The notes under the pieces were generated by a model. That model saw only the letters and a list, made by a program, of their open reading frames with translations, made no database searches and was not told the DNA's origin. From the NCBI GenBank assembly GCA_016290295.1, contig JAEETJ010000002.1:79583-143582 (forward strand): DNA of 64,000 nucleotides, read 5' to 3'. Source of the DNA: Bacteroidales bacterium (GTDB lineage: Bacteria > Bacteroidota > Bacteroidia > Bacteroidales > WCHB1-69). This document shows, in pieces, positions 5,969 through 64,000 of this stretch; positions within the stretch are counted from its first letter, which is position 1; each line of letters opens with the position of its first letter. The position numbers were made by a program, and so were the translations under genes.

Positions 5969-7672
5969 ATGACCTTATTCACTTTCTTGAAACTTTTAGG
6001 CTGCCTGGCTCTGCTGATGTTTGGTATGAAGATGATGAGCGAGGCACTGCAAAAGCTGACTGGTGGCGGCTTGCGTAAGGTGCTCGGCACCATGACCACC
6101 AATCGTGTAACAGGTATTTTTACGGGAGCCCTCGTAACCACTGCTGTGCAGTCATCCACTGCCACCACTGTGATGACGGTAAGCTTTGTCAATGCGGGAC
6201 TGCTAACCTTAAGCCAGGCCATTTCGGTCATCATGGGTGCTAATATCGGTACTACTGTGACCGCATGGATTATTGCCCTATTTGGCTTCAGTATTCCCAT
6301 GTCCGCTTTGGTTTTTCCTTTGTTTGCTCTGGGTTTGGCCATGTCGTATATGAAAAGCACTGGTGCCAAATCGTTCGGTGAGTTCATCTTCGGCTTTTCC
6401 TTCCTGTTCTTGGGTATCGCCACCTTACGAGAGAATGCCATTGCCATGGACTTGCCGCATAATGAGTTTGTGATGAGCTTCTTTACTTCAACGGCAAAAT
6501 TAGGTTTTCTTTCCTACCTTATTTTCATGTTGATTGGTGGTGTACTGACAGTTTGTGTGCAGTCGTCCGTGGCTATCATGGCTATTACCATGATCCTCTG
6601 CTCTACGGGTGTGGCCGATATTTATCAGGGCATAGCTTTGGTGCTTGGCGAAAATATAGGTACGACTGTTACCTCCAACATTGTGGCGTTGAAAGCCAGT
6701 CCGTCTGCCCGTCGTGCTGCCCTCTCGCACCTGACTTTCAACATGTTTGGTGTATGCTGGGTGCTGCTGGTCTTCCGTCCGTTCATCTCTTTGGTCTGTT
6801 CCATAGTGGGCTATGATACCAAAGCGGATGTGTCGCAAGATCCGAATGCCGCAGAGCGTATCAATTATGCCTTGTGTGCTTTCCATACCGCTTTCAATGT
6901 GTGTAATGTGCTGATATTGGTGTGGTTTATTCCTCTTCTTGAGAAATTTGTCTGTAAGGTTATCAAAGGCGGTGAAGAAGACGAGGATATGCGCCTGCGC
7001 TTCATCTCGGGTGGTCTGCTTTCCACCGCCGAGCTGTCATTGCTCGAAGCCCGTAAGGAAATCAACCATTTTGCCATGCGTGCCCACCGTATGTTTGGCT
7101 TCGTGCCCGAATTGCTGAAACTGGAAAATGGCGACGAGTTCTCCAAATTGTTTGCCCGTATAGAGAAATATGAAGGTATTAGCGACAATATGGAGGTGGA
7201 AATCGCCAATTACCTGAACCGTGTGGCGGAAGGGAAGTTGAGTGGTGAAAGTAAGATGCAGATTCGCTGTATGTTGCGTGAGATCTCTGAAATAGAAAGT
7301 ATTTGTGATAGCTGCTACAATATGAGCCGTGTCATCAATAGGAAGTTCAAAGCTAAAGAGCGTTTCACCGAAGATCAGTTAGGTCATATCCGCCATATGT
7401 GGGGACTTTGTGATCAGGCTTTGACCCAAATGGAGAAGATTTTAGCCGATTCAGATAATCTGGTGGATCCACACGAGTCCTTGAATATTGAGAATGAAAT
7501 TAATATTTATCGTACCCAGCTGAAAGAGAATAATGTGGTGGATATCAACGAAAAGAAATACGATTATCAGACGGGTGTGAACTACATGGACATTATCGGC
7601 GATAGCGAGAAATTAGGCGACTATGCCATCAATGTGGTTGAAGCACATACGCAAGTGAAACTCACCACTTAA
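5969..7672 (+). CDS. Na/Pi cotransporter family protein with C-terminal PhoU-like region
   Basis: MFGMKMMSEALQKLTGG.LRKVL...TGALVTTAVQSSTATTVM, with a second QSSVA repeat, is the Na/Pi-cotransporter II-related signature. Confidence 0.85.
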   Translation: MTLFTFLKLLGCLALLMFGMKMMSEALQKLTGGGLRKVLGTMTTNRVTGIFTGALVTTAVQSSTATTVMTVSFVNAGLLTLSQAISVIMGANIGTTVTAWIIALFGFSIPMSALVFPLFALGLAMSYMKSTGAKSFGEFIFGFSFLFLGIATLRENAIAMDLPHNEFVMSFFTSTAKLGFLSYLIFMLIGGVLTVCVQSSVAIMAITMILCSTGVADIYQGIALVLGENIGTTVTSNIVALKASPSARRAALSHLTFNMFGVCWVLLVFRPFISLVCSIVGYDTKADVSQDPNAAERINYALCAFHTAFNVCNVLILVWFIPLLEKFVCKVIKGGEEDEDMRLRFISGGLLSTAELSLLEARKEINHFAMRAHRMFGFVPELLKLENGDEFSKLFARIEKYEGISDNMEVEIANYLNRVAEGKLSGESKMQIRCMLREISEIESICDSCYNMSRVINRKFKAKERFTEDQLGHIRHMWGLCDQALTQMEKILADSDNLVDPHESLNIENEINIYRTQLKENNVVDINEKKYDYQTGVNYMDIIGDSEKLGDYAINVVEAHTQVKLTT

Positions 7673-7786
7673 CAGTTGATAATTTATAATTGATAATTGA
7701 CAATTGACAATTATTCAAATTTACGCTATTCATTGTTCACTATTCATTATTAATTATTAATTGTAAATTGTAAATTGTAAACTGTC
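7673..7786. repeat. Heptad-phased intergenic spacer (about 16 consecutive 7-nt words from stop to next start)
   Basis: cagttga|taattta|taattga|taattga|caattga|caattat|tcaaatt|tacgcta|ttcattg|ttcacta|ttcatta|ttaatta|ttaattg|taaattg|taaattg|taaactg|tc-ATG. Confidence 0.85.
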
Positions 7787-10051
7787 ATGTCGCAGCATAA
7801 ATCAGACTATATTGAGGTAATCCGTGCTACGGAGAACAATCTGAAAGAGGTATCCCTTAGGATTCCCAAGGGGGTGATTACTGTTTTTACGGGTGTGTCT
7901 GGTTCTGGCAAATCCTCGTTGTGCCTCGATACCATTGCTGCCGAAAGTCGCCGTGAGCTGAATGAGACCTTCCCGTCATTTGTGCAGCAATACCTGCCGA
8001 AATATGGTCGCCCGAAGGTTGAGCGTATCAACAATATGCCGGTGACTATTGTCATTGACCAGAAAAAGCCGGCACCGAATAGCCGTTCCACTGTGGGCAC
8101 TTATACCGATATCCAACCCTTGCTGCGATTGCTTTTTTCGCGTGTGGGTAAGCCTTTTGTGGGCTATTCCGATACATTCTCTTTCAACCATCCCGCTGGC
8201 AGTTGTCCTCGTTGTGCAGGACTGGGAGAAATCCGCGAGCTGGACATCCACAAGTTAGTGGATTTTGACAAATCGCTGAATGACGAGGATACCATTCATT
8301 ATATTGCCTTCGGCAAAGGTGGTTGGCGCTGGATTCGCTACGCCCATAGCGGTTTGTTTGACCTGGACAAGAAAATCAAAGATTATTCGCCGGAAGAATT
8401 GGACTTGTTCTTGAATTCACCGCAGATTAAACTGAAGAATCCGCCTTCCAACTGGCCTAAAACTGCCAAATATGAAGGCTTGATACCTCGCATGTATCGC
8501 AGCATTATCAATTCGGAAGAAGGTTTGTTGCACGCTGCCGTGTTGAATCCAATGCTGACGATGGGCACTTGTCCGGACTGCAAGGGTACACGTCTGAATG
8601 AGAAAATACGCTCCTGCCGCATCAATGGCAAGAATATTGCCGAAGTGGGGGATATGCCCATCTCGGAATTGTCGAATTTTATTAATGCCATTGACGATCC
8701 CTTGGCGGTGGACATTAAGCGTGAATTGTTGAGACGTGTGCAGGCACTCAATGACATCGGCTTGGGCTATATCTCTTTGAGTCGTGGCACGGGCACTTTG
8801 TCGGGAGGCGAAGCCCAGCGCATCAAGATTGCCAAATACATTAACTCGGCACTGACCGACATGGTCTATGTGCTGGATGAACCCAGTGTGGGTCTGCATC
8901 CGCAGGATATTACCCGTTTGAAGAATTCTTTGCGTCATTTGCGTGATCATGGTAATACGGTGCTTATAGTGGAGCATCACCGTGAGATTATCGCTATGGC
9001 TGACCATGTGGTGGATATGGGACCGATGGCAGGCAGTCATGGTGGGGAAATTATGTTCGAGGGCTCGTATGATGCTTTGATTCAGTCTGATACCATTACG
9101 GGTAGAATGTTGCGCTATAAATCGGCTATGAAAACCAATCCCCGACAGCCGAATGGGTGGTTTCCGGTGCGTCATGCCGATTTGCACAACCTGAAAGACT
9201 TGTCGGTGGATATTCCGCAAGGCGTTATGACCGTTGTCGCGGGTGTCGCGGGTTCAGGCAAAAGCTCACTGATGGAATTCTTCCAAAACCATTGTGACCG
9301 TGAGACTATTTTTATTGGTCAGAAAAATATTGGTATCAACCTGCGTTCTACGCCTGCTACCTATTTGGATATATCAGATCCGATTCGTAAGCTTTTTGCA
9401 CAGGCCAACAAGGTGAATATGCAGCTGTTTTCGTTCAATTCCAAAGGTGCTTGTCCCGCTTGTGGTGGCAAGGGCGTGATTGTGTCCGATATGGCCTTTA
9501 TGGAATCCATTGAGACAGTTTGTGAGCTGTGCAATGGCAGCCGCTATGCCGAGGAAGTGCTTCAGTATAAGTACAAAGGAAAGAATATTGCCGAGGTGAT
9601 GGATTTTTCGGTGGAAGAGGCGGTGGAGTTCTTCGAGGGACAGCCCTTCCATCCTCAGCTGAAGGCCTTGCAGAAGGTGGGCTTGGGATATTTGCATCTT
9701 AACCAGACGATGACCACGTTGAGTGGGGGAGAGCTGCAACGTATTAAGCTGGCCGACCAGTTGCATCGCAAAGGTGAGGTGTTCATTATCGACGAGCCGA
9801 CCGATGGCTTGCACTTGGATGATGTGCACCGTTTGCTGAAGCTTTTCCACGAGATGACTGATGCTGGTAATACTTTAATATTGATTGAGCACAGTCTCGA
9901 TGTGATGAAAGAGGCTGATTATATCATTGAGCTGGGTCCAGGTGGTGGCGATAAAGGCGGTGAGTTGCTTTTTGCTGGTTTTCCTGCCGACATCCTCTCC
10001 GCACCCCATTCTGTCACTGCCCCATATTTACGGGAAAGCCTTCCGGAGTAA
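7787..10051 (+). CDS. UvrA-like ABC ATPase paralog lacking the UvrB-binding domain (short UvrA class)
   Basis: Two ABC modules (GVSGSGKSSL at both halves; LSGGE.QRIK signatures) and zinc modules (CPRCAGLG, CPDCKG, CPACGGKG). At 754 aa it is shorter than the roughly 940-aa canonical UvrA. The sequence goes from ..LLFSRVGKP straight to FSFNHPAGSCPRCAGLG. Confidence 0.85.
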   Translation: MSQHKSDYIEVIRATENNLKEVSLRIPKGVITVFTGVSGSGKSSLCLDTIAAESRRELNETFPSFVQQYLPKYGRPKVERINNMPVTIVIDQKKPAPNSRSTVGTYTDIQPLLRLLFSRVGKPFVGYSDTFSFNHPAGSCPRCAGLGEIRELDIHKLVDFDKSLNDEDTIHYIAFGKGGWRWIRYAHSGLFDLDKKIKDYSPEELDLFLNSPQIKLKNPPSNWPKTAKYEGLIPRMYRSIINSEEGLLHAAVLNPMLTMGTCPDCKGTRLNEKIRSCRINGKNIAEVGDMPISELSNFINAIDDPLAVDIKRELLRRVQALNDIGLGYISLSRGTGTLSGGEAQRIKIAKYINSALTDMVYVLDEPSVGLHPQDITRLKNSLRHLRDHGNTVLIVEHHREIIAMADHVVDMGPMAGSHGGEIMFEGSYDALIQSDTITGRMLRYKSAMKTNPRQPNGWFPVRHADLHNLKDLSVDIPQGVMTVVAGVAGSGKSSLMEFFQNHCDRETIFIGQKNIGINLRSTPATYLDISDPIRKLFAQANKVNMQLFSFNSKGACPACGGKGVIVSDMAFMESIETVCELCNGSRYAEEVLQYKYKGKNIAEVMDFSVEEAVEFFEGQPFHPQLKALQKVGLGYLHLNQTMTTLSGGELQRIKLADQLHRKGEVFIIDEPTDGLHLDDVHRLLKLFHEMTDAGNTLILIEHSLDVMKEADYIIELGPGGGDKGGELLFAGFPADILSAPHSVTAPYLRESLPE

Positions 10052-10054
10052 TCA

Positions 10055-10335
10055 GGTTACAGGTAGCAGTTTGCGGTGGAACCGCAACCGCCGCATAGGA
10101 TAGCAGGGTAGTAGGTAGCAGGTAGCAGGTAGTAGGTAGTAGTATGCGGTGGAACCACAGTCGCCGCATAGGATAACAGGGTAGCAGGTAGTAGGTAGTA
10201 GGTAGTAGGTAGTAGGTAGCAGGTAGCAGTTTGCGGTGGAACCGCAACCGCCGCATAGGATAGCAGGGCACAGGTAGTAGGTAGCAAGTAGCAGTTTGCG
10301 GTGGAACCGCAGTCGCCGCATAGGATAGCAGGTGT
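10055..10335. repeat. REP-like hairpin element array: 4 copies of a 29-nt core separated by (TAGGTAG)n heptamer runs
   Basis: Core TGCGGTGGAACCGCAACCGCCGCATAGGA occurs at 10072, 10145, 10232 and 10297, with variants ..CCACAGTCGCC.. It contains the hairpin TTGCGGT-GGA-ACCGCAA. The same core occurs inverted at 33.3 kb and once at 37.95 kb. Confidence 0.9.
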
Positions 10336-11745: not shown

Positions 11746-11873
11746 ACGAAACCAATTAATAGTTAACAATTAATAATTAATAGTTAATACTCGATATCTA
11801 TTATTGTCACATAAACTTTAACTGTCAACTATCAATTGTCAACTGTCAACTATCAACTTAATTCCCTGTTCTA
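11746..11873. repeat. Heptad-phased intergenic spacer (nnnTTAA and TGTCAAC words)
   Basis: caattaa|tagttaa|caattaa|taattaa|tagttaa|...|ctttaac|tgtcaac|tatcaat|tgtcaac|tgtcaac|tatcaac| all stay in one 7-nt phase. Confidence 0.85.
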
Positions 11874-21054: not shown

Positions 21055-21768
21055 ATGAATAGATTAAAATCATTACCGTTTTTATTGTGCTGTATCGCCG
21101 TTATAATGCTGGTTTCCTGCCGTCCTGCGGTAAAGAATCCTCATTCGGTGACCATGGGTGATGTGACCATTCAGAACGGAGACCTGCTGTTTGTGGGCTT
21201 GCCCTTGGATTATCATATAGTGGATACTGCCAGTATGGATGAGGCCATTACTGCGGCAACAGGACAGGAAAATGCTGTGAATTACATTCATGTGGCTATT
21301 TTGGAGGTGGATGAAAACGATAGCCTGTGGATTATTGACGCTACTATCAAACATGGTGTTGACCGTTATCCTTTCAGCGTTTTTGTCAGTGACTTTACTT
21401 TGAATGATGGAAGTAGTCCAGAAATGGTGGTGATGCGCCTGCAGGATAATGCAAATGTGAAAAAGTATGTGGAAAATGCCAAAACATACTGTGGACGGGA
21501 ATATGATATGCACTTCCTGCCTGATAACGAGGCCCAATATTGCAGTGAGTTGGTGCGTAATAGCTATACTACCAGCACCGGTGAGTACATCTTCAGCGAG
21601 TCACCGATGAATTTCAAGTCTGCCGATGGCACCTTCCCTCCGTATTGGGTAGAGTTGTTTGATTTGCTGGGAGAACCTATCCCACAAGGAGTTATGGGAA
21701 CTAACCCGAATGATATGTCACAGGAACAGTGCCTGAAACGGGTGGGAGAGATGAGAGTTGATAATTGA
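21055..21768 (+). CDS. YiiX-family permuted papain-like (NlpC/P60 clan, C92) enzyme
   Basis: GDLLFVG..., ..YIHVAILEV...IIDAT..GV.., REYDMHF.PDNEAQYCSELV match the YiiX/DUF830 order of motifs. Signal peptide present. Confidence 0.7.
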   Translation: MNRLKSLPFLLCCIAVIMLVSCRPAVKNPHSVTMGDVTIQNGDLLFVGLPLDYHIVDTASMDEAITAATGQENAVNYIHVAILEVDENDSLWIIDATIKHGVDRYPFSVFVSDFTLNDGSSPEMVVMRLQDNANVKKYVENAKTYCGREYDMHFLPDNEAQYCSELVRNSYTTSTGEYIFSESPMNFKSADGTFPPYWVELFDLLGEPIPQGVMGTNPNDMSQEQCLKRVGEMRVDN

Positions 21769-21865
21769 CAGTTGACAATTAACAATTAACAATGAATAAT
21801 GAATTGTGAGTGATTAGCGGAAAACAACTATTAACTATTAATTATTAACTATTAATTATAAGGGT
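21769..21865. repeat. Heptad word array (TTGACAA / TTAACAA / TTAATTA words) starting directly at the stop codon
   Basis: TGA-cagttgacaattaacaattaacaatgaataatgaatt...ctattaactattaattattaactattaatta. Confidence 0.85.
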
Positions 21866-22339
21866 ATGGATTTTGGTAAAATATTGAAATATAGTGTTTT
21901 GGTTCTTCTTTTCATGGCAGTGGTGCCGTTGAAAGCTCAGGTCAACAAAGGAGATCGTTTGGTGGGTACTTATCGTGTGGTGGAGCCGGAAACCAAAGAG
22001 GATTCCAAAGTGAAGATTTTCAAGACTGCCGATGGCAAGTACAAGGGACAAGTGATCTGGTTGGCGGTGCCTACCATGAAGGATGGCACTCCCAAACGTG
22101 ATATCTTGAATCCTGACCCCAAAAAACGCAACACCCCTGGTGACCAAATCGTGTTGCTCTGGGGCTTTACCTACGATGCCGACAAGGATATGTGGGTGAA
22201 TGGGGAAATCTATGATCCCTGCCACGGCAAAACCTATAAATGCAGGCTTAATTTCGAGAGCGACACGAAGCTGAAGGTACGGGGTTACATCGGTGCTCCC
22301 GCCTTCGGAAAGAGCATGTACTGGTACAAAATTGATTGA
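21866..22339 (+). CDS. DUF2147 domain protein (secreted)
   Basis: ..KVKIFKTADGKYKGQVIWL....D..NPDP..R..P..G..ilw.......W.NGEIYDPCHGKTYKCRL......LKVRGYIG...FGKSMYW is the DUF2147 consensus. Confidence 0.75.
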   Translation: MDFGKILKYSVLVLLFMAVVPLKAQVNKGDRLVGTYRVVEPETKEDSKVKIFKTADGKYKGQVIWLAVPTMKDGTPKRDILNPDPKKRNTPGDQIVLLWGFTYDADKDMWVNGEIYDPCHGKTYKCRLNFESDTKLKVRGYIGAPAFGKSMYWYKID

Positions 22340-22357
22340 TTAACTAAGAACTAAAAA

Positions 22358-22395
22358 TTAAGAACTAAGAATTATATTTCATTCTTAGTTCTTAA
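22358..22395. terminator. 15-bp perfect hairpin built from TTAAGAAC words, between convergent genes
   Basis: TTAAGAACTAAGAAT (22358-22372), loop tatatttc, ATTCTTAGTTCTTAA (22381-22395). Confidence 0.5.
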
Positions 22396-22446
22396 CTCTT
22401 AATTCTTAATTTAATTAGCACATTTGCTAATTAACTAATTTGCTCA

Positions 22447-23895
22447 TTATTTTAAGATCTTCATGAATTCCACGGTAAGATCCCAGCACATCTTCACAGT
22501 CTTGATTTCCAGCTTTTCATCTGGAGAGTGAACACCGCGAAGGGTGGGGCCGTAGGACACCATGTCCAAACCGGGATATTTCTCGGAGAAGAGTCCGCAT
22601 TCCAATCCAGCATGAATGGCCAATACCTGTGGCTCTTTCTTGAACAGGTTTTTGTAAGCCTGTACCAGTACTTCAAGCACTTTGGAGTCCGGGTTGGGAG
22701 TCCAGCCGGGATAGCCGTCGCTGCTGGTTACATCGTTGGCACCGGTGCCGCAGAAAGTGGCAGTCACCATATCTACCGCATCCTGCTTCTTGGATTCCAC
22801 AGAGCTGCGCTGGCTGGTGGTGACAATGATTTTCTCGCCTTCAATCTTCACAGAGGCTAAGTTGGTGGAGGTCTCTACGAAGTCTTTAATATTCTGTGAC
22901 ATGGCTAGAACTCCGTGAGGACAAGCATAGAGGCAGTTCATCAAATCCACCTGCAAGAGTTCATCCAATACTTTCTTGGGCATTTTGGCGCTTTCAAAGC
23001 AAACTTCCACATCAGGGTCTGTAACGAGATATTCATTCTTGTATGCCTCGTTCATGGTCTTGAGGTATTGCTCGAAATCCTTGGCGTAGGTTTTGGGAAT
23101 TACCACGAGGGCATAGCCTTCACGGGCGATAGCGTTGCGCAAGTTGCCAGCCTTGATGTCGGCAATGCGAAGGCCGTATTCCTGATAGCCATTCCAGAGG
23201 AGGCGGTTGAGCAATTTTACAGCATTACCACGGCCTTTGTTGATGTCATCACCAGAGTGACCGCCCTGCAAACCTTTGACAGTCACAGTGTATGCTACGC
23301 TGTTGTTTTCGATTTCGCTGTCCCACTCGCAGTCGAAAGTGGCCACGGTGTCTTTGCCGCCGGCACAGCCAATAAAGAACTGGCCTTCATCCTCGGAGTC
23401 GAGATTGAGCAGCATTTTGCCTTTCATGAAACCAGGTTCAAGTGCGAAAGCACCAGTCAAACCAGTTTCCTCATCTACAGTGAAGAGGCATTCAACGGGA
23501 CCATGTTCCAGGTCTTTGGAGGCTAAAATAGCTAAGGCCATAGCCATACCAATACCGTCGTCTGCACCAAGAGTGGTACCTTTGGCCTTCATCCATTCGC
23601 CATCCACATACGATTGAATAGCGTCTTTCTCGAAGTCAAATTTGGTGTCATTATTCTTTTCACACACCATGTCCATGTGAGCCTGGAAAATGATGGGCGT
23701 AACATTTTCTTTGCCGGGAGTGGCGGGCTTGCTGATTAATACATTGCCGATTTTGTCACGTTTGGTCTCCAAACCTAATTTCTTGCCGGTTTCAACCAAC
23801 CATGCTGATATTTTCTCCTCTTTTTTGGAGGGACGGGGAACTTTGCATATTTCGTCAAAGAAGTCAAAAACGATTTTCGGTTCTAAGTTTGCCAT
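22447..23895 (-). CDS. pepD: Aminoacyl-histidine (Xaa-His) dipeptidase PepD, M20 family
   Basis: FFDEICKVPRPSKKE..., QAHMDMV, GADDGIG, VDEETGLTGA, LNLDSEDEG are PepD/M20C motifs. 482 aa. Confidence 0.9.
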   Translation of the reverse strand: MANLEPKIVFDFFDEICKVPRPSKKEEKISAWLVETGKKLGLETKRDKIGNVLISKPATPGKENVTPIIFQAHMDMVCEKNNDTKFDFEKDAIQSYVDGEWMKAKGTTLGADDGIGMAMALAILASKDLEHGPVECLFTVDEETGLTGAFALEPGFMKGKMLLNLDSEDEGQFFIGCAGGKDTVATFDCEWDSEIENNSVAYTVTVKGLQGGHSGDDINKGRGNAVKLLNRLLWNGYQEYGLRIADIKAGNLRNAIAREGYALVVIPKTYAKDFEQYLKTMNEAYKNEYLVTDPDVEVCFESAKMPKKVLDELLQVDLMNCLYACPHGVLAMSQNIKDFVETSTNLASVKIEGEKIIVTTSQRSSVESKKQDAVDMVTATFCGTGANDVTSSDGYPGWTPNPDSKVLEVLVQAYKNLFKKEPQVLAIHAGLECGLFSEKYPGLDMVSYGPTLRGVHSPDEKLEIKTVKMCWDLTVEFMKILK

Positions 23896-28185: not shown

Positions 28186-28200
28186 AGTGTTTAAATTCAA

Positions 28201-28246
28201 AATTCAAGATTCAATACTAACCCCTAATCCCTAATTATCACATTAA
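28201..28246. repeat. Word array (ATTCAA, CCCTAA) plus junction TTATCACATTAA; the same composite element occurs at 33.75 kb
   Basis: aattcaagattcaatactaacccctaatccctaattatcacattaa. Its reverse complement shares 18 identical nt (TTAATGTGATAATTAGGG) with 33747-33764. Confidence 0.85.
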
Positions 28247-28912
28247 CTAATTTGCTAATTTGCTAATTATCAATTTGATTTCTTCTGTCTGGCTTGTGTC
28301 GCCGTTGAGTTTGCAGCTGGCGTGAACCTCGTTTACATGGCTGCGGCTGATGAGTTCTGTCACATTCTCACTGCCGACTCCGCCGCCGGCGAGAATGGTG
28401 ATGCGTTGGCGGGCTTGTTTGACGATTTCTGCCAGTGTGTCAGCTCCTTGCGGGGCACTGGGTTGCTGGCCGGAGGTAAGAATACGATGGAAGCCACAGT
28501 CAATGATCTGTTCCAGCGCTACTTGCCAGTCCTTGCAGCGGTCGAAGGCACGGTGAAAGGTCACCTGCATGGAGCCGACATGTTGCATGGCAGTGCGGCA
28601 TTTTTCCACATCTATACTCAAATCGGACTTGAGAAAGCCAATTACCACACCGGGAATGCCATGTTCGCGGCAAAATGTGATGTCCGACAGTATCGTGTTG
28701 AACTCTTCCTCCGTATAGCAAAAATCGCCGCCACGGGGACGAATCAACACAAAGGTTTGCAGAGGCAGATGCTCCTGACAGTACAAAATATCATCGTATG
28801 AGGGAGTTAAGCCGCCTAAATGCAGGTCACGGCATAACTCAATGCGTTTAGCTCCGGCCTCCGCCGCATTGATGGCGGATTGTCGGTTTCCGCAACAAAC
28901 TTCCAATAGCAT
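28247..28912 (-). CDS. cutC: Copper homeostasis protein CutC
   Basis: LLEVCCGN..SAINAAEAGAKRIELC, ..IRPRGGDFCY, FHRAFD, ILTSGQ are CutC motifs. Start moved to the ATG at 28912, downstream of a TAAATTTG box. Confidence 0.85.
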   Translation of the reverse strand: MLLEVCCGNRQSAINAAEAGAKRIELCRDLHLGGLTPSYDDILYCQEHLPLQTFVLIRPRGGDFCYTEEEFNTILSDITFCREHGIPGVVIGFLKSDLSIDVEKCRTAMQHVGSMQVTFHRAFDRCKDWQVALEQIIDCGFHRILTSGQQPSAPQGADTLAEIVKQARQRITILAGGGVGSENVTELISRSHVNEVHASCKLNGDTSQTEEIKLIISKLAN

Positions 28913-28962: not shown

Positions 28963-29043
28963 AATTCAAAATTCAAAGATCAAAATTCAAAATTCAAGAA
29001 GTCCATTTACTAATTTGCTAATTAACGAATTTGCTAATTGAAT
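28963..29043. repeat. Heptad/octad word array (AATTCAA, TAATTTGC) in a divergent promoter region
   Basis: aattcaa|aattcaa|agatcaa|aattcaa|aattcaa|gaagtcc|atttact|aatttgc|taattaa|cgaattt|gctaatt. Confidence 0.85.
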
Positions 29044-29092
29044 TTTTTGTATCTTTGCGGCAACAAAATAACAACCTAAAAACCAATTTGCT

Positions 29093-33310: not shown

Positions 33311-33492
33311 ATATGCGTGGACTGCGGCTCCACCGCAAACGGAAACCTGTATTCCATAACCTATGCGGCGGTTGCGGTTCCACTGCAAACGGAAACCTGT
33401 ATTCCATAACCTATGCGGCGGTTGCGGTTCCACTGCAAACGGAAACCTGTATTCCATAACCTATGCGGCGGTTGCGGTTCCACCGCAAAATA
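33311..33492. repeat. Tandem 50-bp repeat (about 3.6 copies) carrying the REP-like hairpin core in inverted orientation relative to 10.1 kb
   Basis: Unit CTATGCGGCGGTTGCGGTTCCACTGCAAACGGAAACCTGTATTCCATAAC is exact at 33361-33410 and 33411-33460, with diverged flanking copies. Hairpin TTGCGGT-TCC-AC(T/C)GCAA. Confidence 0.95.
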
Positions 33493-33507: not shown

Positions 33508-33540
33508 TAACCCCTAACCCCTAATCCCTAACCCCTAACA
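33508..33540. repeat. CCCCTAA heptamer array (telomere-like word)
   Basis: taacccctaacccctaatccctaacccctaaca. Confidence 0.9.
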
Positions 33541-33546
33541 TCTATC

Positions 33547-33714
33547 ATGGAACATATCTTTCGTTTAGTCCTCCTGTACACCGTCTATATCGTGCCAACC
33601 TATTTCATGGAGATTGATGACAAGTTCATCATCCAAATCGGTGGCATTCTGGGCATTACCGTGGCCTATATCATCGCTATACTGATTCTTAAGAAAAGGA
33701 AGAAACAGAATTAG
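33547..33714 (+). CDS. 55-aa small membrane protein (below ORF-track cutoff)
   Basis: ATG at 33547 to TAG at 33712-33714: MEHIFRLVLLYTVYIVPTYFMEIDDKFIIQIGGILGITVAYIIAILILKKRKKQN. It has two hydrophobic segments and a basic tail, and codon usage resembles its neighbours. Confidence 0.4.
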   Translation: MEHIFRLVLLYTVYIVPTYFMEIDDKFIIQIGGILGITVAYIIAILILKKRKKQN

Positions 33715-33840
33715 TTAATTAGCAAATTAGTTAATTAGTTAATTAGTTAATGTGATAATTAGGGGTTAGTGGTTAGGGGATAGGGGATAGTGTTGAATTT
33801 TGAATTCTAACCCCTATCTCCTAACCCCTAATCACTATAA
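33715..33840. repeat. Word arrays (TTAATTAG, TTAGGGG and inverted CCCCTA) forming a long imperfect hairpin
   Basis: ttaattagcaaattagttaattagttaattagttaatgtgataattaggggttagtggttaggggataggggatag ... ctaacccctatctcctaacccctaat. Confidence 0.85.
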
Positions 33841-36679: not shown

Positions 36680-36769
36680 TCAGTTGACAATTAACAATTA
36701 ACAATTAACAATTAACCTTCCTAACCATTTGAATTTTGAATTTTGAACTTTGAATTCTGAATTAATGCC
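36680..36769. repeat. Heptad arrays (CAATTAA x4, TTTGAAT x5) filling the spacer
   Basis: t-cagttgacaattaacaattaacaattaacaattaac...catttgaattttgaattttgaactttgaattctgaatt. Confidence 0.9.
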
Positions 36770-37840
36770 ATGCCTAAACGAATATGCTATTTACTAAGTA
36801 TCATTTTTCTGTTGGCATCCTGCAAGAAGCCTGAATTCAAAGCCACACCCTACGAAATCCAGATACCGCTGCATTTCCCCACAATTCTGAATATCCCTGC
36901 AGATAATCCCATGACTGTGGAAGGTGTCGATTTGGGCAAGAAACTATTCTATGATGGGCATTTGTGCGGTTATATGGGCAGTGATGAAGCCCAACAGATG
37001 AGTTGTGCCACCTGCCATGATTCGCAGCATAGTTTTGACATAGGCACCGACAATCCGCGCTTTCCGGGTGGACAGCCTGTCGGTCTGTCGGGACAAGCCA
37101 CACACCATGTGCCGTTGCCCTTGATAAACCTCGTGTTCAACAGCAAAGGCTATTTGTGGAATGGGGCGATTACGAGCATAGAAGATATTGTGCTGGCGAC
37201 TTTTACTGACCCGACAGAGATGAATAGCAGCCATGCAAGTGTGGTGGCGGCCATCCAGTCGAATAGCGCTTATCCGCCAATGTTCGAGAAGGCTTTTGGC
37301 ACACCCGAGGTTACCATTGACCGCATTGCCAAGGCCATAGCGCAGTATGTCCGCACGTTGATATCCGCCAACTCCAAGTTTGACAAATATATGCGGGGAC
37401 AGGCGCAACTGACACCGCAGGAGTTGAATGGTTATGTGCTATTCACTACCGAAGAAGGAGGCGATTGCTTCCATTGCCATGGCGGTGGCGGTACGCCGTT
37501 GTTTACCACAAACCTGTGCTATAATAATGGCTTGGACAATGTTTTCAATGACCCGCATGACCGTTTTTCCGTGACTGGCGATCCAATGGACCACGGAGCC
37601 TATAAAGCACCGACACTGCGTAATATTGCTTTGACAGCACCCTATATGCATGACGGGCGTTTCAAAACCTTGGATGAAGTGCTGGAGTTTTACAATACTG
37701 GTTTGCAGAATTCGCCGTATGTGAATCCGCTGATGCACCATGTGAACGATGGGGGAGTGCTGCTCACCCCCAACCAAATAGCGGACCTGAAGGCCTTTCT
37801 GGAGACTTTGACGGATGAGGAGTTGACAGTTGACAATTGA
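36770..37840 (+). CDS. Di-haem cytochrome c peroxidase (CCP/MauG family) lipoprotein
   Basis: Lipobox LLASC and two CxxCH motifs (CATCHD, CFHCHG). Conserved ..YKAPTLRNIALTAPYMHDGRF.TL.EV..FY. Confidence 0.85.
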   Translation: MPKRICYLLSIIFLLASCKKPEFKATPYEIQIPLHFPTILNIPADNPMTVEGVDLGKKLFYDGHLCGYMGSDEAQQMSCATCHDSQHSFDIGTDNPRFPGGQPVGLSGQATHHVPLPLINLVFNSKGYLWNGAITSIEDIVLATFTDPTEMNSSHASVVAAIQSNSAYPPMFEKAFGTPEVTIDRIAKAIAQYVRTLISANSKFDKYMRGQAQLTPQELNGYVLFTTEEGGDCFHCHGGGGTPLFTTNLCYNNGLDNVFNDPHDRFSVTGDPMDHGAYKAPTLRNIALTAPYMHDGRFKTLDEVLEFYNTGLQNSPYVNPLMHHVNDGGVLLTPNQIADLKAFLETLTDEELTVDN

Positions 37841-37949
37841 CAGTTGACAATTAAGAATTAAGAATTAAGAATTAAGAACTTTACTACTAATCACTAAACA
37901 TTAAGAGTTTGAATTTTGAATTTTGATCTTTGAATTTTGAACTTAATCC
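37841..37949. repeat. Heptad arrays (TTGACAA, GAATTAA x4, TTTGAAT x5)
   Basis: cagttgacaattaagaattaagaattaagaattaagaac...agtttgaattttgaattttgatctttgaattttgaac. Confidence 0.9.
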
Positions 37950-40181: not shown

Positions 40182-40205
40182 TTATCAATTATAAATTGTT
40201 AATTG

Positions 40206-40925
40206 TTAACTGTTAATTGCTTTCAGGTCTTCCGGCGTATCCACCCCAATGCCTTCGTACTCGCATTCCGACACATAGATAGAGTACCCGTTTTCTATCC
40301 AGCGGAGTTGCTCCAGCTTCTCGCTTTTCTCCAACGTAGATTCCGGTAGTTGGATGAGTTCTTGCAGGATTTTATGAGTGTAGCCGTAAATGCCGATGTG
40401 TTTGTAGTAGTTGGGAGTAAATTGTTCGGGATTACGCAGGTAAGGTATAGTATGGCGGCTGAAATAAATGGCTTTATGGTTCTTGTCGAAAACCACTTTC
40501 ACCTTGTTAGGGTCGTTGATTTCTTCGGTTTTAGTGATTTTTGAGCATAAAGTAGCTATTTTCGTGTTGGGATTATCAAACTGATGAATGAGCAGGTTGA
40601 TGATGTCGCCGGTAATGAAGGGCTCATCGCCTTGCACATTGATGATAATGTCGTCATCGGGTAATCCTAACTCTTTGGCGGCGGCTCCACAACGGTCTGT
40701 GCCTGAAGGCAGGGTAGGTGAGGTCATCACTGCCTGTCCGCCAAAACCATGAACGCAGTTGGCGATACGTTCATCGTCGGTGGCTACCAAAACCCTATGG
40801 GCCTGTGAGCGTAAAGCGGCTTCACAGACATGCTGTATCATGGGTTTCCCCTGAATCAAAGCTAAAGGTTTGCCAGGAAAGCGTGTCGATGCGTATCGTG
40901 CTGGGATAATGATATTTACAGCCAT
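40206..40925 (-). CDS. kdsB: 3-deoxy-manno-octulosonate cytidylyltransferase (CMP-KDO synthetase)
   Basis: IIPARYASTRFPGKPLA, VATDDERI, NVQGDEPF, LEQLRWIENG are KdsB motifs. Confidence 0.9.
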   Translation of the reverse strand: MAVNIIIPARYASTRFPGKPLALIQGKPMIQHVCEAALRSQAHRVLVATDDERIANCVHGFGGQAVMTSPTLPSGTDRCGAAAKELGLPDDDIIINVQGDEPFITGDIINLLIHQFDNPNTKIATLCSKITKTEEINDPNKVKVVFDKNHKAIYFSRHTIPYLRNPEQFTPNYYKHIGIYGYTHKILQELIQLPESTLEKSEKLEQLRWIENGYSIYVSECEYEGIGVDTPEDLKAINS

Positions 40926-44989: not shown

Positions 44990-45211
44990 TGGTTAGTGGC
45001 CAGGGGTCAGGTTACAGGTGTCAGGGATCAGAATTGACAATTGATAATTGACAGTTAATAGTTGTAGCTATTGAAATTCAGAATTCAATACTAACCTTTT
45101 TAACCTTCCTAACCTTCCTAACCCATCTAACCCTTCCATCCTGTAATCCTGTAATCCAAAATCAATTGTCAACTATCAGTTTTCAGTTTTCAGTTCTCAG
45201 TTTTCAACTTC
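44990..45211. repeat. About 220-bp continuous short-period word tract (7-nt, then 9/8-nt, then 7-nt)
   Basis: gttagtg|gttagtg|gccaggg|gtcaggt|tacaggt|gtcaggg|atcagaa|ttgacaa|ttgataa|ttgacag|ttaatag|...|aaccttcct|aaccttcct|aacccatct|...|cctgtaat|cctgtaat|...|atcagtt|ttcagtt|ttcagtt|ctcagtt|ttcaact. Confidence 0.9.
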
Positions 45212-47680
45212 TCACAGTCCTCTCGTTCCTCTCGGAGCCGTGGAGATTACCGCGCTACGGGGACGGATGTTGCCGCCACCGCTGGTGCTGCGACTGCTTG
45301 CCGTACTGGTAGCGGTGCTGCTATGGCTGGTTGATGAACTGCTGGTGGTGCTGGGACGGGTACCTGAACTCGTGGAGGGCTTAGCCCCACTGCTGGGCGT
45401 TGCGGAACCTGTAGGCCTGCTATTGCTACTGGGAGCAGTGCTGCTTGAGGGTCTGCTGCCACTTGGTGCCGCACTACCACTCGGTTTGCTGCTGGGAGCT
45501 GTACCACCACTCGGCTTGCTTGCCGTGGGAGTGCTTGCGGAGGGTTCTGAGGTGACAGGCTTGTTTTCCGCCAGCACAGGCTCAGTATTGGCAGGCCTGT
45601 CATAGTCCTTCGGCACATAATTGCCCTTACTCTGCTTGTAATGTGTCATGGAGTTCACACGGCTGATGCGTGATGATAGATTGTGTCCGCCAGTAGTCAG
45701 CAGGTCGTTAAAGGTGATGATGAGCGAGGAGGTCTTCATGTAGCGTCCGCTGTTGCCAGCCAAATTGCCCGCAAAATAGTTCTTGACATTGTTCAGGTCC
45801 ATGCCTAAAAGGTCCAGATTGTTCTTGCCGATTTCCCGCATCAGCTGGTTGACCTTACGGGCTCGAAGCATGGTGTTATAACTCTCCCGGTCTCTGACGG
45901 CGACACCACGAGGGTAGGAGAGGAACTTCGCCAGTTTGTTGAACTGCTCTTCCGACAGACTGTTAAGCAGGTTCTTCACCTCGTTGATATTTCCGCTGAT
46001 ACCCGCTTTGGTGTTCTGATGTACATTCTGATAAATGAAATCAATATGCTCATTTGTATAAGTCATGTTGTAGTTCTGCTCATTCTCGCGTAATTGTTTG
46101 TCAACATGTTCTTTCTGATACCTGTCGAAAGTGCGGTGCGACAAGCTGTCGGCGAAAGCGGCAATCGCCTCGCTACTCATGTTTTTAATGGTGTTGAGCA
46201 GATTAAGCGTTGGCTTATACAGCAAAAACGGTTTGTTCTTCGGGAAAGAAGGGTAGGTGTTGCCGGAATAGCTGATGTTATTGTCAATAAATAACTGATA
46301 CAAAGCGGTATATTGCACCACACGTGCCAAATCGGTATTGCAAAGGGTGGCGAAATAGTGGTAGGCCTGGCTTTCATAGCGGTAGCCGATGGATTCGCTG
46401 CGTTCCTGCGAGTTGAAATAACTGACAGGCAGTGAGCCGGTGCGGTTCAGTGTGTAAATGGTATATCCTTCACAGTCAATGGCATACATGGCACCAGCGG
46501 TGTTCCAGTTATAAACCAGTTCCGACAAACCCAATTTTCTGAACAGCGGTTTATCGAAAGGATAGTAGCCGGGGTCAGGATAGCGGTAATAGCCTTCCTG
46601 GATGGTGCCACGCTCCGACCAGTCCTTCAGCAGCACGTCGGTGATGGTCATCAGGTCGCCAAATTCGGTGTTTTCCAGCTCTTTGCTCAGGTAGGTGGGA
46701 CACCAGTCGCGGCCATTGTTCATCTTGCCGGCCATCAGGTCGTTGATGTCGAGGCTCTGCGACAATTCTTTTTCGGTAGTGGAGGCCAACAGCAAAATGC
46801 TCTCGATTTGCAGGGGTGGCAGCTCATTCAGCGGAGACTGGCGTTCGCGGCCAATGATGACCAAGGTGCTGCTGTCGGCCAAAGCTCCCAAAATCAGGTC
46901 TGCATCCAGGGTGAATTGGCGGATATCGCCCACTTGTCCGGCAATATCTTCATTCTTAGCAATTGCCCAGGCCACAAAACCTGGCAGCTGGCTGAAGAAT
47001 ACCCCTCGCGATTGTTCGGCAAACATGTCGGATATGGTCATCACATGATTGGTGTCATCCAAGGTCATAAAGCCTTCGCCATCTTCCATGAACCAGATGT
47101 TGAATTCATTCAAAGTAATCTGATAATCAATATTTTCCTTGGCGAAATACTGCCTTTTCTGCTCCACAGGCAACTCGGTTACGATAGGCTTGTATTCGCT
47201 GAAAAACAGCTCTTTGTTCAGCTTGCGAATCAGATTGTCGCAGTTCTCCTGGGTGGCGTTGCCCAAGTATATCAGCATGTCGGTCACATAGCCGTCATAA
47301 CCTATGGAATGCTTGCGTAATTCCACTTTGTGGGTGAATTTTTTGAAAATGGAGGCCACAGAGTCGGTCTCAAAGTGGGGTGGCAGTTCGCTGACCATGA
47401 TCATACGACTGCTGTCGGCAAAGGAAGCCATGCCAATGGTCTGATAATGAAAACGATATTTCTTCCGGAAGTCTTTGTAAATGGAATCGGACGACTGGCT
47501 AACCATACAGCTGTCAATTTGTATATTCTGATTGGGAATATACTCATACACAAATAGTTTGGCGGTTCCTCGTTTGACCTCCTCCACAATGGAAGGGCGG
47601 GTGGTGACCAGGAGAACGCCTGCGGCAAACAAGGCTATGATAATCAGCCATATAATAGTTTTTCCAGCAGTTTTTTTCAT
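45212..47680 (-). CDS. 822-aa N-terminally anchored protein of unknown function with a roughly 140-aa Ser/Thr/Pro-rich C-terminal tail
   Basis: TM IIWLIIIALFAAGVLLV, a large domain with no motif I recognise, and a C-terminus ..PSASTPTASKPSGGTAPSSKPSGSAAPSGSRPSSSTAPSS.... Strong long ORF. Confidence 0.7.
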   Translation of the reverse strand: MKKTAGKTIIWLIIIALFAAGVLLVTTRPSIVEEVKRGTAKLFVYEYIPNQNIQIDSCMVSQSSDSIYKDFRKKYRFHYQTIGMASFADSSRMIMVSELPPHFETDSVASIFKKFTHKVELRKHSIGYDGYVTDMLIYLGNATQENCDNLIRKLNKELFFSEYKPIVTELPVEQKRQYFAKENIDYQITLNEFNIWFMEDGEGFMTLDDTNHVMTISDMFAEQSRGVFFSQLPGFVAWAIAKNEDIAGQVGDIRQFTLDADLILGALADSSTLVIIGRERQSPLNELPPLQIESILLLASTTEKELSQSLDINDLMAGKMNNGRDWCPTYLSKELENTEFGDLMTITDVLLKDWSERGTIQEGYYRYPDPGYYPFDKPLFRKLGLSELVYNWNTAGAMYAIDCEGYTIYTLNRTGSLPVSYFNSQERSESIGYRYESQAYHYFATLCNTDLARVVQYTALYQLFIDNNISYSGNTYPSFPKNKPFLLYKPTLNLLNTIKNMSSEAIAAFADSLSHRTFDRYQKEHVDKQLRENEQNYNMTYTNEHIDFIYQNVHQNTKAGISGNINEVKNLLNSLSEEQFNKLAKFLSYPRGVAVRDRESYNTMLRARKVNQLMREIGKNNLDLLGMDLNNVKNYFAGNLAGNSGRYMKTSSLIITFNDLLTTGGHNLSSRISRVNSMTHYKQSKGNYVPKDYDRPANTEPVLAENKPVTSEPSASTPTASKPSGGTAPSSKPSGSAAPSGSRPSSSTAPSSNSRPTGSATPSSGAKPSTSSGTRPSTTSSSSTSHSSTATSTASSRSTSGGGNIRPRSAVISTAPRGTRGL

Positions 47681-62994: not shown

Positions 62995-63390
62995 TTACCG
63001 CTCCTCTAACTTCGGTTTAACAGGGTCATCCAAGTGTATGACATAGTCATATTCCACTGTCAGCACGCCTTTTACGCCCTTGAAATATTGCATGGTTTCT
63101 TCAAGTGTTTTGTTCTCGGGCTTCTTCAGCGCCATGCCATTCATGAAATGGTAGTCATAGACAATCTCGCACTTGTAATTCTTGATGGCTTTCAATATGG
63201 CCTCTTTCCCTATTTCCGCATCGTATAAAATCAAAAAAACATTCGGAGAGTGTTCCGGAACAAACTTGTCTTCCAGCAGGGGCTCCGACTGCTCAACCAC
63301 TTGCTCTGTCCTGCACGACATCAAGCACAGAAGAGCAAGTAGAACTATCAAAATCTCGATTTTATTGATCATTGGATATCTAATTATCAA
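62995..63390 (-). CDS. Small secreted protein with peptidase-inhibitor-I9 (subtilisin propeptide)-like fold
   Basis: Signal/lipobox region ILIVLLALLCLMSC, then ..ILYDAEIGKEAILKAIKNYKCEIVYDYHFMNGMALKKPENKTLEE....KGVLTVEYDYVIHL resembles the I9 pattern. Moderate recognition only. Confidence 0.45.
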   Translation of the reverse strand: MIIRYPMINKIEILIVLLALLCLMSCRTEQVVEQSEPLLEDKFVPEHSPNVFLILYDAEIGKEAILKAIKNYKCEIVYDYHFMNGMALKKPENKTLEETMQYFKGVKGVLTVEYDYVIHLDDPVKPKLEER

Positions 63391-63442
63391 TTACTAAATG
63401 CCAATAATCAATTATCAACTATTAATTATCAATTGTCAACTG
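63391..63442. repeat. Heptad word array (TTGACAA / TTGATAA words) directly after the stop of the upstream minus-strand gene
   Basis: Minus strand after the TAA: cagttgacaattgataattaatagttgataattgattattggc... Confidence 0.85.
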
Positions 63443-64000
63443 TTAATTATTAATCGCTGCCATGATTTCTTCCTCTGATTTTCCCAGCACCTGCAAGTAA
63501 GCACGGATGTTGTCACAACTGCTGTCGTCAGGGTATTTGTGCAGGAATTCGCGGTATTCGTATTCGGCATCCAGATATTTGTGCAAGATGTCATCGTAGA
63601 TAAAAGCGCGGTTCAGATAGCAGTTCTTTACACCTTCGTATTCAGGGTAGGTGGCTTGGATCTTTTCGAATACAGAAATACCTTTCCGGGCATATTTCTC
63701 AATATATTCCTCATCAGGATTCGGTTCCATGCTGGCATTTTTTGCCAATATCATGCAGGCTACACCCGCTTTGGACAGCATGTCGGGAATGATGTTGTTC
63801 TCGGGATGCATATCAGCAAATCTGATAGTCTGGGTGATGAAATCCTCGAAAAGCTCCTTGTTGATAATGCCTTGCTGATACAGCGAGTCGGCTTTGTCGT
63901 AAGCCTGCAACAGTTCGGTCTGGTCGCAGCTTTCCTCTTGGACAGCATTGACATTTTGATTCCTCGATTTATTGCAGGAAAATAGGAGAGTGGCTATGCA
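63443..64000 (-). CDS. Lipoprotein (TPR-like helical), 5' end outside window
   Basis: The frame stays open upstream of the listed TTG start to the window edge: ..CIATLLFSCNKSRNQNVNAVQEESCDQTELLQAYDKA... LLFSC looks like a lipobox, so the true start lies beyond 64000. Confidence 0.6.
   Translation of the reverse strand, partial: CIATLLFSCNKSRNQNVNAVQEESCDQTELLQAYDKADSLYQQGIINKELFEDFITQTIRFADMHPENNIIPDMLSKAGVACMILAKNASMEPNPDEEYIEKYARKGISVFEKIQATYPEYEGVKNCYLNRAFIYDDILHKYLDAEYEYREFLHKYPDDSSCDNIRAYLQVLGKSEEEIMAAINN

Follow-up and report, generated by a model that had tools for sequence, protein, structure and literature searches.

Heptanucleotide and octanucleotide tandem arrays in the intergenic spacers of an uncultured rumen Bacteroidales genus

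The focal spacer and the array content of the genome

The sequence analyzed here, i.e., a stretch of 64,000 nucleotides (hereafter referred to as the window) corresponding to positions 79,583 to 143,582 of the forward strand of contig JAEETJ010000002.1, belongs to a Bacteroidales bacterium of the GTDB group WCHB1-69 (GenBank assembly GCA_016290295.1). Its genome is a 3.19-Mb metagenome-assembled genome (MAG) consisting of 94 contigs, with a GC content of 44% and a completeness of 97.7%, and its ParC protein shares 92-96% identity with the ParC sequences of rumen MAGs of uncultured Bacteroidales/Bacteroidetes, which were recovered from cattle, sheep, yak and red deer; all genomes used for comparison are likewise MAGs. 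The element under study is a 114-nt spacer with 20% GC (window positions 7673-7786) built largely of tandem seven-letter words, which is flanked by two genes on the forward strand. The upstream gene (5969-7672) encodes a Na/Pi cotransporter-related protein with a PhoU-like C-terminal part (NCBIfam NF037997, 159 bits; TIGR00704, 201 bits), and its TAA stop codon (7670-7672) directly abuts the first heptad, CAGTTGA, while the downstream gene (7787-10051) encodes a UvrA-like ABC ATPase of 754 residues.

Lag-identity analysis, with z-scores calculated against shuffled sequences, returned a lag-7 identity of 0.73 for the focal spacer (z = 9.1, a value reached by none of 1000 shuffles), with lag 8 at background level. 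Tandem Repeats Finder (TRF) reported TTGATAA x5.3 at 7676-7712, as well as overlapping period-7 and period-14 rows over 7726-7785, and period-7 arrays account for 85% of the spacer. The original prediction had parsed the entire spacer into sixteen consecutive heptads in a single phase. The period of seven is thereby borne out, but sixteen heptads amount to 112 nt rather than 114, leaving two bases over, and the presumed single continuous ladder in fact represents two. Ladder 1 (7673-7714) reads CAGTTGA-TAATTTA-TAATTGA-TAATTGA-CAATTGA-CAATTAT, and ladder 2 (7729-7784) reads TTCATTG-TTCACTA-TTCATTA-TTAATTA-TTAATTG-TAAATTG-TAAATTG-TAAACTG; between them lies a 14-21-nt non-repeat core, equivalent to two or three unrelated heptads, and the Hamming distances across units 6-9 are 5, 5 and 4. 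The ladders are near-inverted with respect to each other (arms 7690-7713 and 7758-7781, 83% complementary), and the corresponding RNA is predicted to fold into a long imperfect hairpin with a stem of ~28 bp (minimum free energy -23.1 kcal/mol, z -2.8).

Arrays of this kind extend well beyond the window. Genome-wide, TRF returned 329 intergenic rows of period 7 and 225 of period 8, compared to 0 and 1, respectively, in first-order Markov shuffles of the same intergenic segments. The shuffled-composition control therefore does not reproduce the signal, and the earlier view that these spacers are not ordinary AT-rich DNA is confirmed, while the period-8 class had previously been overlooked. The multiples 14, 16, 21 and 24 are also represented among the intergenic rows, while periods 1-6, 9 and 10 are nearly absent, the unit length being sharply 7 or 8. 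A period-7 row is present in 233 of 1415 crude spacers; these spacers, and all gene ends used in the genome-wide counts, rest on a gene map produced by a crude longest-ORF (open reading frame) caller. Among the 1156 spacers of 50-400 nt, lag-7 identity exceeded z = 3 in 19% and lag-8 identity in 14%, as opposed to 0.5-1.7% for other lags. In a non-redundant TRF set, period-7 arrays were intergenic in 251 cases and located in called ORFs in 51, with corresponding numbers of 155 and 22 for period 8, and 20 of 48 period-7 arrays with their midpoint in an ORF were located no more than 45 nt from the ORF 3' end or straddled the stop codon. Together, the period-7 and period-8 families comprise 34 kb, i.e., ~1% of the genome. 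Arrays are not enriched at contig ends (3 versus 7.5 expected), which rules them out as assembly break-points.

The arrays are short, with a median of 4.4 copies (10th-90th percentile 3.4-6.0, maximum 28.6), and AT-rich (GC 0.26-0.29). When words were made canonical for strand and rotation, 249 heptamer arrays fell into 44 classes and 155 octamer arrays into 23; about half of the period-7 arrays derive from six heptamers, and a single octamer, AAATTAGC (in another form CTAATTTG), accounts for 51 arrays. Of the adjacent unit pairs within arrays, 39% show no difference and 45% a single substitution. Array words are among the commoner heptamers outside the arrays, although this correlation is weak (rho 0.24). 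The proposal that unrelated blocks of a spacer share a common phase did not hold: neighbouring unrelated period-7 arrays were in register in 4 of 27 cases (3.9 expected), i.e., at chance level, so that a common register over a whole spacer is ruled out and phase is retained only within a ladder.

Turnover among relatives and placement at gene boundaries

Comparison of orthologous spacers revealed gain and loss of whole units between relatives. Directly after the parC stop codon, a heptad array was present in all six close relatives (92-96% ParC identity), with differing words and copy numbers, while no array was found at this position in two relatives with 84% ParC identity. Two relatives (L003 and L005) are 94% identical over the post-parC spacer, and their alignment contains a single gap, which measures exactly 7 nt and lies inside the array. 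The spacer between the Na/Pi cotransporter-related and UvrA-like genes, 114 nt in the present genome, measures about 170-310 nt in three congeners, where it also starts with heptads at the stop codon, albeit with other words; in genomes G007 and G004 the first five units of this spacer are common, after which copy number and word diverge. That whole units are gained and lost, and that single-base variants of a unit stand side by side as so-called ‘word ladders’, is evident from these alignments, and the slippage that had been suggested as one possible generating mechanism is in agreement with both the exact 7-nt gap and the divergence beyond the fifth unit.

Independent assemblies from cattle, sheep, yak and deer carry arrays at the same loci. 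In 20-kb samples, period-7/8 arrays were detected in seven of seven members of the same genus, in none of seven other genera of the family and in one of six other families. Furthermore, a survey of 80 ParC loci showed period-7 and period-8 arrays composed of unrelated words in several more distantly related Bacteroidales MAGs (55-70% identity). Judged from the sequences compared, position and period persist while sequence does not, and the trait is both lineage-specific and recurrent. Loss of mismatch repair was ruled out as a cause, as MutS (909 bits) and MutL (507 bits) are present and intact; the absence of repeats with units of 1-6 nt is consistent with an intact MutS/MutL system.

With regard to gene orientation, arrays occur in 48%, 38% and 28% of tandem, convergent and divergent spacers of 150-250 nt, respectively. 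Across 529 co-directional spacers, array coverage is highest (0.24-0.26) at 5-25 nt past the stop codon, ~0.15 mid-spacer and 0.05 over the 5 nt immediately preceding the start codon. Divergent, promoter-bearing spacers hold a larger share of period-8 arrays, the ratio of period-7 to period-8 arrays being 10 : 23 there, as compared to 239 : 133 elsewhere (Fisher p = 2.6e-4). The -7 promoter motif TAnnTTTG has 91 matches in the window, against 56 expected. No sense-strand match was found in the focal spacer or in the six fully array-built spacers of the window, while in the mixed spacers of the window the motif is located outside the arrays, adjoining the start codon. On the basis of the lacking sense-strand motif, the fully array-built spacers are probably intra-operonic and transcribed. 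The arrays themselves were rejected as promoters of the Bacteroidetes type, given this distribution and since the octamer CTAATTTG, although it resembles TAnnTTTG, is one base short. Sigma-70 promoter-like matches in the arrays were disregarded, both because the Bacteroidetes promoter type differs and because AT-rich repeats containing TTGACA or TAATTA trivially match that consensus.

Stop triplets had been put forward as a feature of nearly all words, on one strand or both. This is the case for 97% of the period-7 arrays and for 89% of the distinct heptamers, yet 85% and 77%, respectively, are expected after letter shuffling within units, and octamers show no excess over such shuffles; the stop-triplet content is thus mostly a result of AT-richness. 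The accompanying argument, i.e., that three consecutive stop-bearing units of 7 nt close all three reading frames, is arithmetically true, and holds equally for units of 8 nt. Where the arrays touch a gene end, a distinct pattern emerged. A period-7 array directly follows 207 genes; its units usually conform to nnnnT(A/G)A, and in many cases it begins within the last codons of the gene. When the sense strand was compared to the antisense strand of the same arrays, those overlapping the stop codon were found to favour stops in sense (discordant pairs 26:3), as were those starting 0-7 nt after it (14:1), whereas no difference was apparent for arrays located 8-40 nt (9:10) or more than 40 nt (32:24) from the stop codon; a second count for arrays 8-400 nt from the stop codon (9:13 and 29:28) displayed the same trend. 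All three sense frames are closed by 78 of 91 stop-touching arrays, compared to 42 of 91 when the antisense strand is read. Moreover, in 34 of 87 arrays that touch a gene end, the stop triplets of the array share their register with the stop codon of that gene (39% versus 14% expected, p about 1e-8), while farther from the gene end the register is at chance (16 of 84).

Ascertainment by the ORF caller was ruled out as the sole cause of this bias, since read-through of an array at the 3' end of an ORF is limited to ~6 cases and the bias is retained in non-overlapping arrays (14:1), indicating a real boundary effect. We read these results as a filter at the gene boundary, whereby an array at a gene end is tolerated only in the orientation that closes the ORF within three units, the array donating the stop codon and a short tail. 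A second such filter appears to operate at the 5' end of the downstream gene, where G-poor orientations are found: arrays within 30 nt of a start codon contain 7% G on the sense strand, leaders in general containing 10% G and 42-49% A. Certain words are strongly oriented relative to transcription, namely AACAATTC (15:1), AAAACTG (15:3) and AACCTGT (11:1), while the most abundant ones, e.g., AAATTAGC (14:16) and AAGAATT (9:14), are without orientation bias, and the commonest words carry stops on both strands. The two boundary filters account for the biases of individual words, which are explained by position, stop-bearing orientations being found at 3' ends and G-poor ones in 5' leaders.

Further arrays of the window and predicted RNA structure

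Nine further spacers of the window had been named, and lag-7 identity was significant in all nine (z 3.7-8.4); two of them are nonetheless not purely heptameric, the spacer at 28963-29043 being half period 8 and that at 44990-45211 mixing periods 7, 8 and 9. The arrays described below were delimited by TRF, in most cases together with lag identity. The spacer between mnmE and the PPTase gene contains AATTAAT x5.1 and AACTGTC x5.6 (11754-11858, lag-7 z 6.1), while TTGACAA x5.1 and AACTATT x4.9 are located at 21752-21859 (lag-7 z 7.9), the former array beginning within the last codons of the upstream gene and overlapping its stop codon (21766-21768). In the convergent spacer at 22342-22449, AACTAAG x4.3 faces its inverted partner ATTCTTA x4.4, each arm bearing a TAA in the sense of its own gene, followed by an array with a period of 16 nt. 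The region at 28193-28268 is composed of AAATTCA x3.1, CTAATCC x2.7 and the octamer CTAATTTG x2.8, and that at 28963-29045 of AATTCAA x5 (period 7) followed by ATTTACTA/CTAATTTG-type arrays (period 8 and 16), with a -7 promoter motif, TATCTTTG, just beyond the array at 29050-29057.

Upstream of parC (33508-33831), TAACCCC x4.6, the octamer AATTAGTT x6.8, TTAGGGG x4.6 and CTAACCC x3.6 were identified. The TAACCCC array (33508-33539) and its inverted partner TTAGGGG (33759-33790) are 219 nt apart and flank the AATTAGTT array, and these two are the sole words of the window that bear G-runs. The spacer between parC and the gene for a di-haem enzyme (36687-36763) holds ACAATTA x4.3, which directly follows the TGA stop codon of parC, and TTTGAAT x5.1, which extends to 6 nt before the ATG. 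Arrays of AGTTGAC x4 (overlapping the stop codon at 37838-37840), AATTAAG x4.3 and TTTGAAT x4.9 are present at 37821-37944, while a short array, AATTGTT x3.7, is located in a 24-nt spacer and enters the end of the neighbouring ORF (40194-40219). A mixed composition was observed at 45032-45214, namely AATTGAC x3.1 (period 7), CTAACCTTC x3.7 (period 9), ATCCTGTA x2.5 (period 8) and TCAGTTT x4.4 (period 7), and the final array, consisting of eleven TATCAAT-type units (63377-63454), covers the spacer at 63391-63442 completely. Octamer words of the window include CTAATTTG, ATCCTGTA, AATGTGCT and AACAATTC (e.g., at 28247-28268, 29005-29045, 33709-33762 and 45138-45157).

An Rfam scan of the window returned only two tRNAs at threshold, and no known RNA family corresponds to the arrays. 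Inverted blocks, which had been proposed to form hairpins, were identified in four of the ten array spacers examined in the window, i.e., the focal spacer and those at 22327-22426, 28968-29046 and 45032-45202, and in none of the six others. The pair at 22327-22426 is real, with 46-nt arms that are 76% complementary, and its inner segment at 22358-22395 scores as terminator-like. Genome-wide, 14 inverted pairs of the same word occur within one spacer (7.9 expected), concentrated in convergent spacers (6 of 19 pairs), as is expected where each of two gene ends independently carries a sense-oriented array. Array-rich spacers do not display greater structure than array-free spacers across the genome (median z -2.0 versus -1.3, p = 0.21), and their folding is weaker when expressed per nucleotide (-0.123 versus -0.177 kcal/mol/nt). 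A stable stem-loop, as would be required of an intrinsic terminator or an element of the repetitive extragenic palindromic (REP) type, is accordingly absent as a general trait, and a hairpin or terminator function is not a general property of the arrays.

A different class of repeat was noted downstream of the UvrA-like gene (10061-10332, forward strand), where GGTAG(T/C)A heptad arrays alternate with a GC-rich 24-nt hairpin motif, TGCGGTGGAACCGCA(A/G)CCGCCGCA, present in four copies spaced at 65-87 nt (~10071-10332; TRF periods 7, 65, 73 and 87). The same motif recurs in the opposite orientation at 33323-33489, as 3.3 tandem units of 50 nt, and a motif census of the genome returned at least 31 strict and 52 core matches, frequently in small clusters, with several copies at the ends of contigs (four contigs). 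The motif resembles a dispersed element of the REP type, set between the heptad arrays. The UvrA-like protein itself matches TIGR00630 with 702 bits, below the cut-off of 729.8 for the UvrA equivalog, and the match starts only at profile position 266; in view of this score, the protein probably belongs to the UvrA2-type ABC ATPases, as a truncated or paralogous form, rather than being the canonical excinuclease subunit. The cumulative GC skew of the window climbs to ~50 kb and subsequently falls, and the turn near position 50000 could represent a replication origin or terminus, or a rearrangement.

Known repeat systems and competing explanations

Heptanucleotides represent the dominant class of prokaryotic long simple sequence repeats (LSSRs), for which polymerase slippage and a 7-nt footprint of the replicative polymerase have been proposed (Mrazek et al. 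2007, as summarised in PMC4679880 and PMC4692102), and the same summaries report that the LSSR survey emphasised Burkholderia, cyanobacteria, actinobacteria and Xanthomonas (Mrazek, Guo and Shah 2007). The arrays described here share the features so summarised, i.e., over-represented 7-nt tandem units, a sporadic phylogeny and exclusion from coding DNA of units that are not multiples of three, and differ in that octamers are nearly as common as heptamers and in that the host is a rumen Bacteroidales. At least ~3 head-to-tail copies of a unit of 5-11 nt, an excess over compositional expectation, confinement to non-coding DNA and copy-number change by whole units were all observed here.

The closest anatomical parallel is provided by the GGGAATC repeats of Xanthomonas and GGGGAYT repeats of Nostoc (Rehm et al. 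2015, PMC4692102). These repeats are ~90% intergenic, are located near or overlapping the upstream stop codon with ~4 units, are depleted between divergent and favoured between co-oriented ORFs, and are mostly transcribed; their positions are kept while length and sequence vary between close relatives, for which slippage has been invoked (PMC4692102). In location, unit number, orientation of the flanking ORFs and variation between relatives, the same anatomy was measured here, and the arrays likewise lie within ~50 nt of the upstream stop codon between co-oriented ORFs with ~4 units. However, the present words are AT-rich and cannot form G-quadruplexes, the minor TTAGGGG/TAACCCC words alone having G-runs, and they number in the dozens, form spacer-filling mosaics and include a second, 8-nt class. 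GGGAATC and GGGGATT were never found in tandem in the source genome.

Direct repeats of TAACTGA have been reported in marine Beggiatoaceae and some cyanobacteria, as well as in five Bacteroidetes, among them Paludibacter, which belongs to the Bacteroidales (MacGregor 2015, PMC4679880), and Gramella and Aequorivita carry other heptamer repeats in the same spacers (PMC4679880). The resemblance lies in intergenic direct heptamer repeats of two to six copies with stop triplets. In the source genome TAACTGA occurs as 230 single copies with no tandem doublet, while the related word AAACTGA is in tandem at 38 loci; furthermore, the Beggiatoa repeats lie in forward orientation within a few nucleotides ahead of start codons, whereas the present arrays are rarest there (0.05) and peak after stop codons (0.25). 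Mazel and colleagues reportedly described, in 1990, short tandemly repeated repetitive (STRR) heptamers in the cyanobacteria Calothrix, Nostoc and Anabaena, in which several tandem words are dispersed intergenically, and in this sense the two systems are alike, with several different tandem heptamers spread through the intergenic DNA of one lineage. Membership of the STRR family, suggested by words such as TAACCCC, was ruled out, as the host belongs to the Bacteroidales and the STRR words are not in tandem. The only published word found in tandem here is TTTTGAA, reported upstream of Nostoc recF (bioRxiv 10.1101/2022.06.06.494920), which is a top word with at least two tandem copies at 37 loci, and we read this coincidence as convergence of an AT-rich word. 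The genus is thus a new host lineage for a known but functionally unexplained kind of repeat, previously described in cyanobacteria, Xanthomonas, Beggiatoa and a few Bacteroidetes; it differs from these in the AT-rich vocabulary of many words, the spacer-filling mosaics, the octamer class and the host lineage.

We consider it likely that the arrays are heptanucleotide and octanucleotide LSSRs, generated by slippage and filtered by local constraints, and that they represent a known kind of repeat in a new lineage. Strand slippage during DNA replication or repair would give rise to short tandem arrays that are constantly turned over. Loops of 7 or 8 nt would be too large for correction by intact MutS/MutL and, given this specificity, slipped units of that length would escape repair. 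Local re-amplification of variant units may produce the word ladders, the generating process being presumably DNA-level and strand-symmetric. Purifying selection acting on nearby functional elements would then govern where arrays survive and how they are oriented: arrays would build up in the unconstrained zone right after stop codons and be rare in promoter-bearing divergent spacers; beside gene 3' ends essentially only sense-stop orientations would persist, an ORF that enters an array being closed within three units; and beside start codons only G-poor orientations would persist, in line with the G-poor leaders of this genome.

Several observations sit less comfortably with this explanation. 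One of them is the sharpness of the 7-8-nt ruler. The vocabulary is restricted and genus-wide, with 44 heptamer classes of ~1170 possible and half of the arrays drawn from six words, which pure local slippage from random seeds does not predict, and the words of the focal spacer match dozens of other loci in the source genome and in most congeners. Arrays keep the same positions in all congeners despite sequence turnover, as would also be expected from selection on the period or on the mere presence of an array. The modest excess of stop-bearing heptamers over letter shuffles (p about 0.014) and a twofold depletion of ATG/CAT and ATA/TAT within arrays relative to the rest of the spacers hint at selection on content. 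This depletion is accompanied by a 2.2-2.5-fold enrichment of TAA/TTA, CTA/TAG and AAT/ATT, and the skew could reflect avoidance of start codons or of TATA-like steps, or the chance composition of a few dominant words. Finally, the gene ends against which position was scored derive from the crude ORF caller.

Among the other explanations, the arrays may be functional cis-elements, i.e., reiterated sites in DNA or polycistronic RNA to which a lineage-specific protein, e.g., of the S1, Csp or CsrA type, would bind and thereby tune the translation or stability of neighbouring cistrons, as proposed for the Beggiatoaceae TAACTGA repeats (PMC4679880) and for heptamers near Nostoc recF/recO, for which a partial reporter study is available (bioRxiv 10.1101/2022.06.06.494920). 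The restricted vocabulary common to the genus, the strong orientation of certain words, the maintenance of arrays at the same spacers in all congeners and the lack of a sense -7 motif in the array-built spacers of the window, which are thus likely transcribed within operons, are all in keeping with such a role. We nevertheless regard it as unlikely, as the words fall into 67 classes, their turnover at orthologous spacers of the genus is complete and distant lineages use others, which is at odds with the conserved protein-binding site that had been envisaged; in addition, the top words are unbiased in orientation, the existing biases are explained by position, arrays are rarest directly before start codons, opposite to the Beggiatoa pattern, and sister genera are devoid of arrays. 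It is less probable still that the 7/8-nt period itself is under selection, with a dedicated factor, i.e., a polymerase or repair variant or an array-binding protein, making or maintaining the arrays, which at each operon junction would then close ORFs in all frames on the 3' side and offer, on the 5' side, a leader that is poor in G and free of structure; if so, the genus would have swapped conventional intercistronic sequence for self-renewing repeat modules.

Selection of the arrays as all-frame translation stops, or ‘bumpers’, that catch read-through or frameshifted ribosomes after genes would account for the closure of all sense frames by most stop-touching arrays, the retained bias in arrays starting 0-7 nt after the stop codon, the stop excess of heptamers over letter shuffles and the coverage peak right after stop codons. 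As a general claim it fails, and we judge it very unlikely, since strand asymmetry is lacking at 8 nt or more from the stop codon, where back-up stops would still be useful, and ~25-30% of arrays 8-400 nt from the stop codon are without any sense stop. Octamers, moreover, have no stop excess, the shared register at gene ends implies that the array physically contains the stop codon rather than providing a back-up behind it, and the stop-poor GGGAATC repeats of Xanthomonas also pile up at stop codons (PMC4692102), position being independent of stop content. A similarly poor case can be made for RNA structure elements, in which inverted-block hairpins would act as intrinsic or bidirectional terminators or as RNase III sites between cistrons: the stem of the focal spacer, the surplus of inverted same-word pairs, their frequency in convergent spacers and the terminator-like score at 22358-22395 would fit, but inverted blocks are confined to a minority of the array spacers of the window, array-rich spacers are no more structured and fold more weakly per nucleotide, and convergent pairs are expected from a sense-oriented array at each gene end. 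Dissemination of the arrays by a templated or mobile process, for which no evidence was found, is scarcely credible, and so is their origin as artefacts of metagenome assembly. The same words do recur at many loci of the genome and its congeners; however, no terminal repeats, target duplications or associated genes were found, arrays differ by single units and bases rather than by presence or absence of blocks, the same loci carry arrays in the independent ruminant assemblies, and contig ends are not enriched.

Interpreted as slippage-generated LSSRs filtered by local constraints, the arrays extend heptameric LSSRs to an uncultured rumen Bacteroidales genus, in which they take up ~1% of the genome and occupy between about one fifth and one third of the mid-sized spacers. 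The many words permit a position-wise comparison of orientation and stop content that is impossible in one-word systems such as those of Xanthomonas and Beggiatoa, and on this basis stop content and strand bias represent boundary effects and not a general design. Genes acquire stop codons and short C-terminal tails from the arrays, which also move ORF ends from strain to strain and will so confuse gene-end annotation and ortholog alignment in MAGs, while also constituting natural hypervariable strain markers. With its array-free sister genera, the genus is furthermore well suited to comparative work aimed at finding the factor responsible.

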